A stretch of 64,000 bases of DNA from Mycolicibacterium cosmeticum (GTDB taxonomy: Bacteria > Actinomycetota > Actinomycetes > Mycobacteriales > Mycobacteriaceae). The stretch is from the NCBI GenBank assembly GCA_016197365.1, contig JACPVS010000016.1, positions 11,909-75,908 on the forward strand, given 5' to 3'. A program made the position numbers. Position 1 is the first letter of the stretch, and every line of letters starts with the position of its first letter. Positions 42,401 to 48,400 of this stretch are shown here, piece by piece.

Positions 42401-45400
42401 ATCTGGAATTCGGGTGGGCGGCGGAACACCAGGCCCAGCGTCGAGCCGTCGTCGAGACCAGTGACGTCGAAAAGGTAGGTCTCGGTGGAGAATCCGCCCG
42501 GGCTCGGTGCCCAGTTGAGCACTTTCGCATCGGCCGCACCGGGGATGCGCTGCCGCACAAGCGCTTCCAGTGTGGCGGGTAGGTCCTCGACCAGCGCCCT
42601 CACCATCCCGTGTATCCGTACCGGGGGTAGGCGCCGATGAACACCATCTCCACCAGTCCGTATCCGGTCTTGAGCGGCTCACCCGCCTCGGTCATCCGCA
42701 CCTCGCACAGCGTCTCGGACAGGAAGCTGACGGGCCTGATGACATCAAGATTCGTCGTGTCGGCGGTGAACCCGTCCAGGAAATCCGTTCCGCGCCAATG
42801 CCCGGACGCATAGCCGTTCACCTCCATGTAGCCGGCCAGCCCTGGCCAGAAGTCGGTGATCGGGCTGACCTCGATGAGGCTGGTGGTGCGGTCGCCGCGG
42901 TGCACGGCGAAGGTGCCGCCGCTGATCACCCGCAGATCATCGCGGAACGTCAGTTCGTGCTCGACGTCGATGATGGCGGCCGCCGGACGCTGCGACTCGA
43001 TGGGATAGAGGATTTCGCCCTCGAACTGCCAGCGCTCCCCCGTGCTGGTCTCGCGCTGCGCGAAATGCACCAGCTCGTCCTCGAATTCGAAGATGCCCAT
43101 GTAATACAAGGTGCCGTCCGGAATTTCCGGGGGTTGCAGATTCGCGCCCTCGGTCAGGCTGCCACCGCCCGGCCCGTTACGCACACCCCAGGAATGGTCC
43201 CGCCCGAACCACCACCGCTGCGGGTCGATCTCGATGCGTTCGCCGTCGATCTCGATCCAGCCCTCCAGTTCACCGTTCTGGTAGAACCGGCGCGCGTCCT
43301 CACTGACCCGGCCACGGCTGCGATGAAACGCCGCTGTCTGTTCGTAGGCGGGGAACTGGCCGCGCAGCCGCAGATCCAGGCTGACGCCTTGGTCGTTGGG
43401 CGCCAGTTGGGCTCGCACCGTGCGCAGTGGCTCTTCGATCGAGTAGGTGAACGGCCCGACGGAATAGTTTCCGAGAGAATCGGTTTGCGGGTTCAGTTCG
43501 GTCGACATCCGCACCACCCTGGCCTCGCCGCCGCGCCGGGTGATCATCGCGTAGGCATCGGTGACGTTGCGGTTCGGGTAGCGCGCCAGGCCGGTCATCA
43601 CGTTGATGTCTCCCGAGCGATCGAACCCGTACATGACGATGCGTTCCGTCCAGCGCAGGTCCGACTGCGCGACGTGATCGAACGTGGTGGGCAGTTGATG
43701 ACAGAGCAGTTCATCGTGCGGAGTGAGCATCGCCAAGCCTTCCCGGGTAATTACGTTATACTGCGTAACGTAACAGGCTGTTCCGGAAAGGGCTAGGTTT
43801 TGGGCATGACAAGCGCAGCGGGCCGCCCGCGCGACCCGGCCAAGGACGTGGCCGTGCTGCAGGCGACGCGCGAGCTCCTGGTCGAGGAGGGGTATCAGGG
43901 CACCACCATGGTGGCCATCGCCAAACGGGCCGGGGTCGGCGCACCGACGTTGTACCGGCGCTGGCCGACGAAAGAGGCGTTGGTGGAGGACGCCGCGTTC
44001 GGGCACACCGACCCGGTCCCGGTGCCCACCACCACCGGTGACCTGTACACCGATCTGCGCGGCTGGGTCGCGATGTTCCTGGGCTGGCTGGCCGATCCGG
44101 TGCCGCGCGCGGCACTGCCGGGTCTGCTCACGGCCTACCACCGCGACGACTCGATCTACGAGCGACTGGTGTTGCGCGCCGAGTCCGATGTGCGCGTGCT
44201 GATGACCGACCTGATCGGCGACGCCGAGCGCGCGGACACCCTGTTCGACTTCCTGGTCGCCACCACCGTCGTCCGGGCGATGACCCGCGGCCTCACCGAC
44301 CACGAGGCCTTCTGCGACCGCACGGCCGCCGCGCTCACCGCGCTGGCCCGCGCCGGATGATCCCCTGGGTCAGGAGATCAGCGGCTCGGCGCCGGCTTCG
44401 AGCGCAGGGCCGATCGCGTTCCGCGCGCCCGGCGCGCGGCCCTTGCCCCAGCCGATCCGCTCGCGGTAGCTGCCGAGCAGGCCCGCACTCACCAGTGCCT
44501 CCTCCTCGACCTCGGCGGGGGTGACGAGCGGAGAGACGAAGAGGGCGTCGACGGGGCAGTTGGCCTCGCACTGGAAGCACGTCTGACAGTCGCTGTGCCG
44601 TCCGATCAAGGGAACACCGTCCGGTCCGCGATCGAAAACGTTCGTCGGGCACACCTCGATGCACTTGTCGCAGGCGATGCACCGCTGCGCCGACACCAGT
44701 TCGATCACGACGCCACCTCGAGCTCCCGAGACGCTTCCGGCCGCACCCAGATGTCGTCCAACCCGCCGGTCAGCAGCCGATGCTGCTGGCCGGGATCCTG
44801 GTCCGGGAAGTCCAGACGCTTCGCCATACCCCGGGTTTCCTTGCGCGCCAACGCCGTCCGGTACATCCACCGGGCATGCGCGGTCATCGCCGCCGCCTGC
44901 CTGTTGCGCACCAGCTGCTCGCCGGACCCGGCCAACGACGCGGTCACGTCGGCCCAGACAGCGTCGAGCACGTCCAGCGCTGTGGCCAGCACCGGCCCCC
45001 GGCGCAGATAGTTCTTGTCATAGGGCAGCACCTCGGCCTGCACCGCGGCGACCACCCCCGCGTGGTCCCCGGACACGTGGGCGGTGCGCGGCCGGATGCC
45101 TGCACCGCCGATGCCGGTCACCCGGCGGGCCGACGCCCCCGGGCCGAGCGCACGTGCGTACCGCGCCGCACCCTGCCCCGCCCAGTTGCCCGACGAGATC
45201 GCCCATGCGGCATTGTGACTGCCGCCGCCACTGAAGCCGCCGCAGATCAACTCGCGGGTGGCCGCATCCCCTGCGGCGTACAGCCCGGGCACCGTGGTGG
45301 CGCAGTCGTCGCCGACGATGCGGATTCCGCCGGTACCGCGCACCGTGCCCTCGCCGAGGAGTGTCACGGCGAACTTCTGGGTGAAGGGGTCGATACCCAT

Positions 45401-48400
45401 CCGGTCGAACGTGAGGAAGAAGTTCGGCTGCGCGCGCCGCATTGCCTGTTGGCTCGGGATGTCGGCCTTGTCCAGTTGGCAGAAAACCTTACCGCGCAAC
45501 AGCTCCGCAGCGATCGGCGAACGCTGGCGCCCGCTGGCACCTTCCAGCACCGAACCGTCTTCCCGGTAGAAGGTGGCAAAGTGGTAGAAGGCCGTCTTGG
45601 TGACCGACGTGCCCGCCGGGGCGATTCCGTAGGCATTGGAGAATTCCATCCCCGAGAGTTCGGCGCCGGCCTCCACCGCGAACAGCGTGCCGTCGCCCGT
45701 ATTCACATCGCAGCCAAGCGCTTTGGATTGGAAGGCGCAGCCGCCGGTGGCCAGCACCACCGCGCCGGCCCGCACCCGGTACGCCCGCTGGACCTGACGC
45801 CGGTAGCCCGCCGCACCGGCCGCCGCACCGTCGGCAGCCGCCAGCAGTTCCGTGACGGGACTGTGGTCCAGGATCCGGACCCCGGCGCGGCGCAACAGGA
45901 TCCGCATCCGGCGCATGTACTCGGGCCCCTGCAGGCCGCCGCGCAACTGCACACCGTCAGCACCCACCGGGAACGGAAACCGGGCCGCATCGGCGAATTC
46001 GTTGATGCGATGGTAGGTCTCGTCGAGTACCCTCGCCGCCCACCGGTGGTCGGCGAGGTAGCCGCCCAGGGCGTCGCGGCTGGCGATCGCGTCCGCGCGG
46101 GCCTGGGCGTCCGGCGGGACGTACCAGACACCGGTCCCTGCCGACGCGGTGGCGCCGCTGGTGCCGCAGTAGCCCTTGTCCGCCAGCACCACATCCGCGC
46201 CACCGGCCGCCGCCCGCAGCGCTGCCCAGCTCGCGGCCGGGCCGCCGCCTGCCACGAATACGTCGGCGGTCAGCTCGTCGAGCTCATCCATGTCCAAACC
46301 CCCTGAGCGCAGCCATGTTCGGTCTACGGTAACCACGCCGGAAGCAAATCCACCACGGCTGCGATCGCGCCGAGTAATAATCGCGCGGGTGTCGAACTGT
46401 TGTTGCCTGCCCTCGCGCTGGGCAGCATCACAGCAATGAGGCCACGTCTGTCAGCACTGTTGATCTCGGCCCTGGCGGTTACTGCCCTGGTGTCGGCCTG
46501 CGGGTCGTCGTCGCACAAAGCGGCGGTCGAGGACGGCAGATCCGTCATCCGCTACCAGGGTTGGGCCAGCCAGGTCACCTATCCCGAACTGGCCGAGAAT
46601 CTGGGTTATTTCCAGAAGATCAAGTTGAAGTGGGTCGGCAACACCACCAGCGGACCGCAGGACATCCAGTCGGCCGCAACCGGAGACACCGATTTCGGCG
46701 GCGCCTTCAACGGCGCGGTGGTCAAGCTGGCTGCTGCCGGCTCCCCCATCACCTCGATCATCGGCTACTACGGATCGGACAAGGAGAATTTCACCGGCTA
46801 CTACGTGCGGGCGGACAGCCCCATCCGCACTGCGCACGATCTGATCGGCAAGAAGTTCGGGATGAACACGCTGGGAGCCCACCAGGAGTTCGTCATGCGC
46901 GAATGGCTGGCCCGCCAGGGCCTGTCCAACGACGACATCAAGAACGTCGAGCTGACGGTCGTCCCACCGGTCAATGCCGAACAGGCGCTGCGGCAGAGCA
47001 ATATCGACGCGGTCGCACTGAACGACATCTGGCGGGACCGAGCCCTGGCACGCGGTGGGCTGCGCCCGTTGTTCACCGACGGGTCCCTGTTCGGCGATTT
47101 CACCTACGGCACATATGTCGTACGCAACGACTTCCTGGCCGCCAACGCCGGCGCCGTCGCCGACCTCACCCAGGGCACCGCCCGCGCCATCCGCTGGGCG
47201 CAGGTCACCCCGCGCGATCAGGTGATCGCGAAGTTCAAGCAGATCATCGGGGCTCGTGGCCGCAACGAGAGTGCCGACAACGCCGACTACTGGAAGAGCA
47301 CCGGCGTCGCCGAACCCGGCGGCGTGATCACCGAACAATCGCTGCAGCTCTGGATCGACTGGCTGGTCCGAAACGGTGAGCTTCAGCAAGGCAAGTTGCA
47401 GGCGAAAGACTTGTACACCAACAAGTTCAACCCGTACTCCAACGGCACCTATCCCGCCGCGGCAGGTCCCGATGGCCAGGCCGTCGTCCGCTGACCGGCC
47501 GCCGGGCCCCCAGGTCCTGCACCGCGCCGTCGCCATCCTGACCGCGGTCGGGGACGCCGACCCCGGCATCTCGCTCACCTCGCTGGCCGCCAGAACCGGG
47601 TTGCCCCTGAGCACCGCCTATCGACTCGCGCAGGCGCTGCTGCACGACGGACTGCTGGAACGCGCGGGCGACGACGAGCACTACCGCGTCGGGTCCGCAC
47701 TCGTCGCGCTGGCCGCCCCGGCCGCACACCGGCTCAACGTAGCGGCCCTGACCCCGCACCTATACGCGTTGGCCGGGGACATCGAGATCACCGCGAGCTT
47801 CGGCCTGGCCGAGACCGACGACATCGTGACCATGTGCACGGCCCGACCGGCGCGCCGATTCTGCACGAACCAGCTCCCGGGAGCCCGACAACCGCTGGCG
47901 CACAGCGCGATGGGCATGGCGGTCGGGGCTTTCACCCGCGGACAGGGCTGGTCGGTACTGGAGCAGGTGCGCCGGCGCGGGTATGCCGACGCGACCGGCA
48001 GTCAGGGCCATCATGTACGCGCCATCGCGGTACCGGTGTTCGACGGCAACGGGCGGGCCTGGGGTGCGGTCGGCGTGCAGGCGTTGCGGCGCAGACTCAC
48101 CGACGACCTGATCCGCGAGATCCTGCCTGTCATGCAGCGCCATGCGCAGCGCATCGGCACGAGCCGGGACATAACCTCATCCTGAGTCTCTTTCGCATGG
48201 TGAAAGCCGCCTTCCCGGGCTCGCCGTGGCGCGCCACCATGGACAACCATGACCATCGCTATCGAAAAGCACACTCCAGCAGCACAAACCGTGACCTTCA
48301 CCCCGGTGGCCGGCCACATCGGCGCCGAGGTGAGCGGGCTCGACCTGCAGACCGGCCTGAGCGCCGAACAGGTGGGCGCCGTGCGGGCCGCGCTGCACCG

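Follow-up and report, generated by a model that had tools for sequence, protein, structure and literature searches.

The stretch of DNA analysed here comprises 64,000 nucleotides of Mycolicibacterium cosmeticum (GenBank assembly GCA_016197365.1, contig JACPVS010000016.1, forward-strand positions 11,909 to 75,908). It is called the window in the following, and positions refer to it unless another record is named. On the minus strand of the window, two overlapping genes encode a flavoprotein and a small ferredoxin. This pair belongs to AsfA/AsfB, a known family whose biochemistry is unsolved, and is an ordinary and intact representative of it. Its genes lie among genes for the uptake and use of organosulfur compounds (Table 1).

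The flavoprotein gene starts with the ATG at 46291 and stops at 44705. A longer frame beginning with the GTG at 46336 would add 15 residues which are common to no relative. The protein of 528 residues is assigned by Pfam to FAD_binding_2 (FAD, flavin adenine dinucleotide) with a weak Succ_DH_flav_C tail, and it contains neither the histidine to which FAD is covalently bound in related enzymes, nor a signal peptide, nor an NAD(P)H-binding domain. The last codons of the gene read GAG GTG GCG TCG TGA. The GTG start codon of the ferredoxin gene overlaps this stop by four nucleotides (GTGA), and the ferredoxin gene therefore runs from 44708 to 44370. The N-terminus of the encoded protein of 112 residues, MIELV, is the same in the relatives, and the Pfam matches are to Fer4 (4Fe-4S) dicluster families. 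The sequence-only reading of this DNA had proposed for 44370-46291 a flavoprotein of the SdhA/AprA superfamily without the covalent-FAD histidine, coupled to a 2[4Fe-4S] ferredoxin and lacking membrane anchors, and hence not a succinate dehydrogenase. These proposals were confirmed: both genes are found at these coordinates, the glycine Gly46 faces the histidine in question, and the ferredoxin carries two CxxCxxCxxxCP motifs. No gene for an SdhC/D-type or other membrane anchor adjoins the pair: next to it lie a TetR gene that converges on the ferredoxin gene and, transcribed away from the flavoprotein gene, an operon that encodes an SsuA-like binding protein. The SdhA model of NCBIfam scores 70 bits against a cut-off of 819.

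An alignment of 32 members of the flavoprotein family from Actinomycetota, Alpha- and Betaproteobacteria and Cyanobacteria has a mean per-column identity of 66%. All columns which are invariant in these 32 proteins are kept in the flavoprotein of the window, as are all columns invariant in 16 AsfB proteins in its ferredoxin; judged on sequence, the pair is intact. In the profile alignment with E. coli FrdA the position of His44, which carries the covalent FAD, is taken by Gly46, a residue invariant in the 32 members, while His232, Glu245, His355 and Arg390 of FrdA correspond to the likewise invariant Tyr221, Lys232, Val317 and Gly355. The residues for dicarboxylate binding are thus replaced, which argues that the protein is neither a fumarate reductase nor an aspartate oxidase. 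The capping domain is 60-80% conserved across phyla. When this domain alone (residues 196-335) was compared as a profile with the PDB, no sequence relative was found, only chance matches to signature motifs of ATP-binding cassette (ABC) transporters. The AlphaFold model of the flavoprotein has a predicted local distance difference test score (pLDDT) of 78.5 and a predicted template modelling score of 0.84. Its three main stretches with a pLDDT below 50 (residues 42-51, 184-196 and 348-358) are all loops of the FAD site, and each of them holds one family-invariant cysteine, namely Cys42, Cys185 and Cys350.

The name of the family comes from a described gene pair. On the megaplasmid of Cupriavidus metallidurans CH34 the flavoprotein of the window has a single match with 57% identity over 98% of its length. 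The gene of this match is followed, with an overlap of four nucleotides, by that of a ferredoxin of 111 residues which is 55% identical to the window ferredoxin, and an SsuA-type ABC importer is encoded near the two. The CH34 pair has been named AsfA/AsfB (Rmet_4334/5; PMC2864759), and position and protein accession of the match agree with this locus tag. By sequence the window pair is a member of the AsfA/AsfB family and a full-length orthologue of the CH34 pair. The founding system is asfRABC of Pseudomonas putida S-313, a gene cluster for the desulfonation of arylsulfonates, and homologues named AsfA/AsfB are known from C. metallidurans CH34, Variovorax, Rhodococcus and Williamsia. As in that system, a flavoprotein of about 530-550 residues with the motif LSGMEF is followed by an overlapping gene for a 2x[4Fe-4S] ferredoxin of about 110 residues, and the two are linked to a binding protein of the SsuA/AsfC type and an ABC importer. 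In contrast to asfRABC, no LysR-type AsfR adjoins the window pair; an IclR gene is part of the divergent operon and an unrelated TetR gene lies downstream. The gene for the binding protein is divergent and not downstream, and the ferredoxin has the motif CFQCE in place of CFMCE.

The last difference concerns the primers by which asfA is surveyed in soil ecology. The forward primer asfAF1all (YTSTCVGGCATGGAGTTYT) encodes LSGMEF, and the reverse complement of the reverse primer AsfBtoA encodes CFMCE (PMC9694294, supplement). The CH34 locus has matching sites for both primers. No member of the flavoprotein family deviates from LSGMEF, and asfAF1all matches the window at 45640-45658 with two mismatches. 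Since the ferredoxin gene of the window encodes CFQCE at 44550-44570, where CFMCE is expected, AsfBtoA has no match within three mismatches there. Standard asfA polymerase chain reactions and surveys with this marker gene would probably miss the window gene together with its mycobacterial clade.

In the phylogenetic tree 122 family members form one group with a support of 100, which sits on a long branch apart from SdhA, FrdA and NadB. The only outgroups were SdhA, FrdA and NadB of E. coli as well as SdhA, an Sdh1-type SdhA and NadB of the genome analysed here. AsfA of the window nests inside the family. It groups with proteins from M. abscessus, Nocardia, Tsukamurella and Amycolatopsis, whereas AsfA of CH34 and the homologues from Rhodococcus and Williamsia are found on other branches, the latter two in a neighbouring actinobacterial clade. 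A grouping with NadB or with fumarate reductases, which had been named beforehand as the result that would speak against an AprAB/AsfAB-like pair, is not seen; the family forms a separate and well-supported branch. Among 1.84 billion proteins, distant full-length relatives were found (215-260 bits), none of which reaches a curated family, and so no characterised sister family was found.

Table 1. Genes and other features at the asfAB locus of M. cosmeticum (window positions; related loci are the 80 loci described in the text)
Feature	Position	Strand	Remarks
cysD	39183-40193		4.2 kb downstream of the pair
asfB-like ferredoxin, 112 residues	44370-44708	-	two CxxCxxCxxxCP motifs; conserved C-terminal tail G-x-YR-x3-GWG-x-G
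asfA-like flavoprotein, 528 residues	44705-46291	-	FAD domain, family-specific capping domain and C-terminal helical domain
Divergent intergenic region between asfAB and binding-protein operon	46292-46435	.	144 bp
SsuA/AsfC-like substrate-binding protein 1, NMT1 family	46436-47494	+	syntenic counterparts with 78% identity in Mycolicibacterium sp. P9-22 and Mycobacterium sp. Root265
IclR-family regulator	47376-48185	+	longest open reading frame, true start probably further in; in 10/80 related loci
TauD/TfdA-family Fe(II)/2-oxoglutarate dioxygenase	48249-49193	+	PF02668, 203 bits; in 46/80 related loci
SsuA-like substrate-binding protein 2	49294-50367	+	paralogue, about 66% identical to binding protein 1
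TauB/SsuB-like ABC ATPase	50364-51185	+	in 68/80 related loci
TauC/SsuC-like ABC permease	51055-52017	+	longest open reading frame; in 65/80 related loci

The gene context of the family was compared in 80 loci from named genomes, mostly of Actinomycetota, with flanks of 10 kb. The ferredoxin gene follows the flavoprotein gene directly in 78 of them, and a NitT/TauT-type permease or binding protein is encoded nearby in 69. At least one of the three oxygenase types LLM monooxygenase, TauD and SsuD occurs in 58 loci. The LLM monooxygenase, which belongs to the NtaA/DmoA family (TIGR03860, 588-607 bits), is found in 49 loci, in 26 of them directly upstream of the pair and on the same strand. In random windows of 21.5 kb from the same genome the queries for binding protein, permease, TauD and LLM monooxygenase match in 0.9-3.8% (permease 1.9%) and the ABC ATPase in 16.5%, an enrichment at the asfAB loci which is only indicative since the related genomes are not independent. 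The same context is seen in four phyla in annotated plasmid records of Pseudonocardia, Paenibacillus, Nostoc and Azospirillum. Homologues from four phyla are 55-80% identical to AsfA of the window. The Pseudonocardia record contains TauD, importer, LLM monooxygenase, a transporter of the major facilitator superfamily (MFS), FAD protein, ferredoxin and carbonic anhydrase; in Nostoc the pair lies among ssuD and LLM genes, and in Azospirillum it is followed by an SsuA-type importer. The plasmid of Paenibacillus cellulositrophicus (NZ_CP045296.1, 533-541 kb) carries one ABC importer operon in which two flavoprotein-ferredoxin pairs follow one another and oxygenase genes are absent. This combination is the barest module seen, and a possible sign that AsfAB works directly on what the importer brings in. 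The TauD-family protein of the window reaches 232 bits with the taurine dioxygenase model, below the cut-off of 313.

Many database records of the family are named succinate dehydrogenase/fumarate reductase flavoprotein subunit or L-aspartate oxidase, so that a soluble enzyme of one of these kinds has to be considered. The flavoprotein shares the three-domain fold and the FAD-binding motifs with SdhA and FrdA of complex II and with NadB, and FrdA and SdhA are the top matches in Foldseek. The AlphaFold model is about equally similar to FrdA, SdhA, the alpha subunit of archaeal 3'-phosphoadenosine 5'-phosphosulfate (PAPS) reductase, NadB and AprA, with template modelling (TM) scores of 0.63-0.74 at 15-21% identity. 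With the profile of the 32 aligned flavoproteins, remote matches among the PDB sequences (E values 6e-26 to 8e-15) are to FrdA and SdhA of E. coli, the mycobacterial SdhA of the Sdh1 type, NadB, AprA and the alpha subunit of archaeal PAPS reductase. Next to the low SdhA score, the NCBIfam model for TfrA gives 83 bits (cut-off 718) and the two NadB models give 66 and 58 bits (cut-offs 639 and 453); no curated model of the SdhA/FrdA type exceeds 83 bits, with cut-offs of 567 and above. The five FrdA residues discussed above are replaced, the partner is a 2x[4Fe-4S] ferredoxin and not an SdhB-type subunit with three clusters, membrane anchors are missing, and the tree separates the family from SdhA, FrdA and NadB. 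The genome moreover encodes its own SdhA, a second SdhA of the Sdh1 type and a NadB (46% identical to that of E. coli) elsewhere. The low model scores and the replaced residues, together with the position in the tree and the canonical SdhA and NadB, led us to discard the fumarate reductase and aspartate oxidase readings, to which we give practically no credence. A route that reduces adenosine 5'-phosphosulfate (APS) or PAPS had been raised by the sequence-only reading. In this view an AprAB-like pair would work in concert with cysD-cysNC, as a second way of reducing sulfate beside CysH. AprAB (PDB 1jnr) and the archaeal AprAB-like PAPS reductase (8a8o) are indeed built alike, as soluble heterodimers of an FAD subunit of the same fold and a small, tailed 2x[4Fe-4S] subunit, with non-covalent FAD and a context of sulfur metabolism. 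The alpha subunit of the PAPS reductase (8a8o_A) is among the structure and profile matches (TM 0.71, E 3.5e-20), its beta subunit matches the ferredoxin core, and cysD, cysNC and a cysQ-like gene lie 4 kb from the pair, nearer still in two relatives.

The identity to AprAB and the PAPS reductase is, however, only 17-18%, the capping domain is unrelated in sequence, and FrdA, SdhA and NadB match as well as or better than PAPS reductase. The AprA model NF005331 covers residues 150-360 only and yields 42.5 bits against a cut-off of 557. At the position of FrdA His355, which as part of the His355/Arg287 pair we take to be the equivalent of the AprA active-site histidine, the family has the invariant Val317. 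An intact operon sirA-cysH-che1 for sulfite reductase, CysH and ferrochelatase is present in the genome next to cysA. CysH scores 264 bits (cut-off 154) and ends in the motif ECGLH. The upstream gene overlaps cysH, and its stop codon accounts for a TGA inside the match, which does not break cysH. Genes for cysD/cysNC occur within 10 kb in only two of the 80 loci, both close kin of the window, and there is no family-wide linkage to sulfate activation genes. A functional link of asfAB to cysD-cysNC was rejected as well, as adjacency is restricted to the two closest relatives and a second cysD/cysNC copy exists on another contig. No observation here asks for a second APS reductase. An APS/PAPS reductase was rejected on the AprA score, the replaced residues and the canonical CysH; we rate it as very improbable. 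Of the double resemblance to AprAB and AsfAB that had been proposed, the AsfAB part stands (flavoprotein 57% and ferredoxin 55% identical to their CH34 counterparts, primer motif, tree) and the AprAB part is not supported. The location between an organosulfur operon and cysD-cysNC holds for the operon, which is 144 bp away, but cysD lies 4.2 kb off behind four unrelated genes.

We consider it reasonably probable that asfAB encodes a soluble cytoplasmic oxidoreductase of two subunits which belongs to a sulfur-scavenging gene island and serves as partner of an oxygenase-based desulfonation. In P. putida S-313, a transposon insertion in asfA abolished growth on aromatic sulfonates, though not on aliphatic ones (PMC4267179), which suggests a role in desulfonation under sulfate limitation. 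AsfB is translated in step with AsfA. In the FAD pocket of AsfA two electrons would be exchanged, and these would travel one by one between AsfA and the partner, in either direction, by way of the two AsfB clusters. The pair would act as the redox module of a desulfonation by oxygenases, in which sulfite is released from sulfonates, in P. putida S-313 from arylsulfonates, when sulfate is scarce. As the NtaA/DmoA monooxygenase gene found in the operon of the closest relatives is absent from this locus, the partner would be an LLM or SsuD-like paralogue encoded elsewhere; two SsuD-like genes are present on other contigs (455 and 446 bits). Several points weigh against this proposal. To our knowledge, no member of the AsfAB family has been purified or assayed, and the label electron transport used in the literature is, as we read it, itself deduced from sequence. 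Because AsfA lacks an NAD(P)H domain and its characterised relatives convert their substrates at the flavin, homology does not predict the role of a plain reductase. The missing NtaA/DmoA gene counts here too, the adjoining dioxygenase is of the TauD type that needs no reductase, and some operons, such as that on the Paenibacillus plasmid, consist only of importer and AsfAB. In addition, the family identity is based on the CH34 pair, the primer motif and the tree.

Alternatively, AsfAB may be the catalyst itself, in the manner of AprAB. AsfA would then bind at its FAD an organosulfur compound taken up by the cell, or an intermediate formed as this is broken down, and oxidise or reduce it, with AsfB only wiring the flavin to the redox pool. 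In one version the chemistry would resemble that of APS reductase, with sulfite released reductively through a flavin N5-sulfite adduct, but from a sulfonate or sulfate ester. It is general knowledge that the characterised members of the fold (SdhA, FrdA, NadB and AprA) all act on a substrate at the flavin, and the missing NAD(P)H domain fits with this. The capping domain, conserved across phyla and without a sequence match in the PDB, points to a specific, conserved substrate. Importer and AsfAB together represent the minimal conserved module, and the window locus lacks a flavin-dependent monooxygenase. On the other hand, the ssu monooxygenase system is described as needed for sulfonate desulfonation in P. 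putida S-313, with asf as an addition to the tool-kit (PMC4267179), and about one locus in three has the NtaA/DmoA monooxygenase gene immediately ahead of the pair, which fits the role of a partner. No substrate can be named, and in our estimation the carbon of a sulfonate is a poor leaving group for AprA-like chemistry. A catalytic AsfAB is possible but rather unlikely. The narrower claim of a self-contained AprAB-like enzyme, which would shuttle no electrons to an oxygenase and would release sulfite reductively at the flavin, through the N5-sulfite adduct, from sulfonates or sulfate esters taken up by the cell, seems to us decidedly unlikely. If it were true, oxygen-independent desulfonation would be widespread in soil Actinobacteria, Proteobacteria, Cyanobacteria and Firmicutes.

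For about twenty years asfA has been a marker gene for sulfonate-mobilising soil bacteria. The copy in the window adds little alone; it extends the family into environmental mycobacteria. The traits of the family as a whole, namely a glycine in place of the FAD histidine, replaced dicarboxylate residues and an orphan capping domain, make it a clear target for biochemistry, to which the nearly obligate tailed dicluster ferredoxin and the frequent operons with importer and NtaA/DmoA monooxygenase add. The family-wide picture also corrects the labels succinate dehydrogenase and L-aspartate oxidase on many database records.

The whole block from 37331 to 52547, down to cysD-cysNC, is found in the same order in Mycolicibacterium sp. 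P9-22 and Mycobacterium sp. Root265. Both additionally carry genes for an NtaA/DmoA monooxygenase and an MFS transporter between the permease and carbonic anhydrase genes, which are missing from the window. The TetR and Rv3169-family genes which lie between asfB and cysD in the window were not found in these two relatives, and the gene content of this interval differs. Identities to the window are 96-98% for CysD and CysNC, 87% for carbonic anhydrase, 82-83% for AsfA, 78-82% for the binding proteins and 70-73% for AsfB. These uneven values together with the gene differences suggest recombination or a faster evolution of the sulfonate island. Of 151 genomes sampled from the same GTDB family, 31 contain an AsfA homologue; records of Mycobacteroides abscessus and Mycolicibacterium also hold homologues. 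Within the genus of the window, one of seven other sampled genomes had a match, which is of a paralogous type with 50% identity. The phylum-wide survey matched two of 301 genomes, a lower bound that cannot serve as a frequency, as only four candidates per genome were scored. The distribution looks patchy, and the island appears to be more mobile or faster-evolving than its flanks. The novelty for a mycobacterium that had been claimed for such a pair was overstated, given the number of matching family genomes and the asfA carriers Rhodococcus and Williamsia, both genera of Mycobacteriales, in the literature (PMC9694294, PMC4267179). For mycobacteria themselves no paper was found that reports asfA, and asfAB is apparently unreported so far in this group.

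The divergent region upstream of asfA contains a repeat-like motif at 46352-46384, which in minus-strand reading consists of GCGATT-N10-GCGATC followed by GCAGCCGTGGT. Six loci from four genera (Mycobacterium/Mycolicibacterium, Nocardia, a GTDB g24 genome and Tsukamurella) share the conserved motif ahead of asfA; besides the window these are the loci of Mycolicibacterium P9-22, Mycobacterium Root265, Nocardia testacea, the g24 genome and Tsukamurella. The motif probably serves as an operator. A genome-wide search returned a single occurrence in 5.5 Mb, and because the motif is confined to the asfA locus no regulon could be drawn. The IclR protein of the divergent operon is a candidate for binding it, yet its gene is present in only 10 of the 80 loci. 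A sigma-70 consensus was not found in the 144 bp.

On the other side of the pair, four unrelated genes separate asfB from cysD, encoding a TetR protein, an Rv3169-family protein, an APH-like phosphotransferase and a DHA2 MFS pump; beyond cysD follow cysNC and the cysQ-like gene. The TetR protein (43800-44360) was rejected as a regulator of asfAB, as its gene is convergent with asfB and divergent from the Rv3169-family gene, and neither a TetR nor an Rv3169-family gene is found in any of the 80 loci. Besides the window copy of cysD-cysNC (37331-40193), the second copy on another contig (2284-4969) encodes a CysD with 61% and a CysNC with 49% identity to it. The open reading frame of 338 codons at 41590-42606, between the Rv3169-family and DHA2 pump genes, is that of the APH-family phosphotransferase (PF01636, 67.5 bits). 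Together, the TetR, efflux pump and APH-family genes look like a small cassette for drug or xenobiotic response inserted between asfB and cysD.

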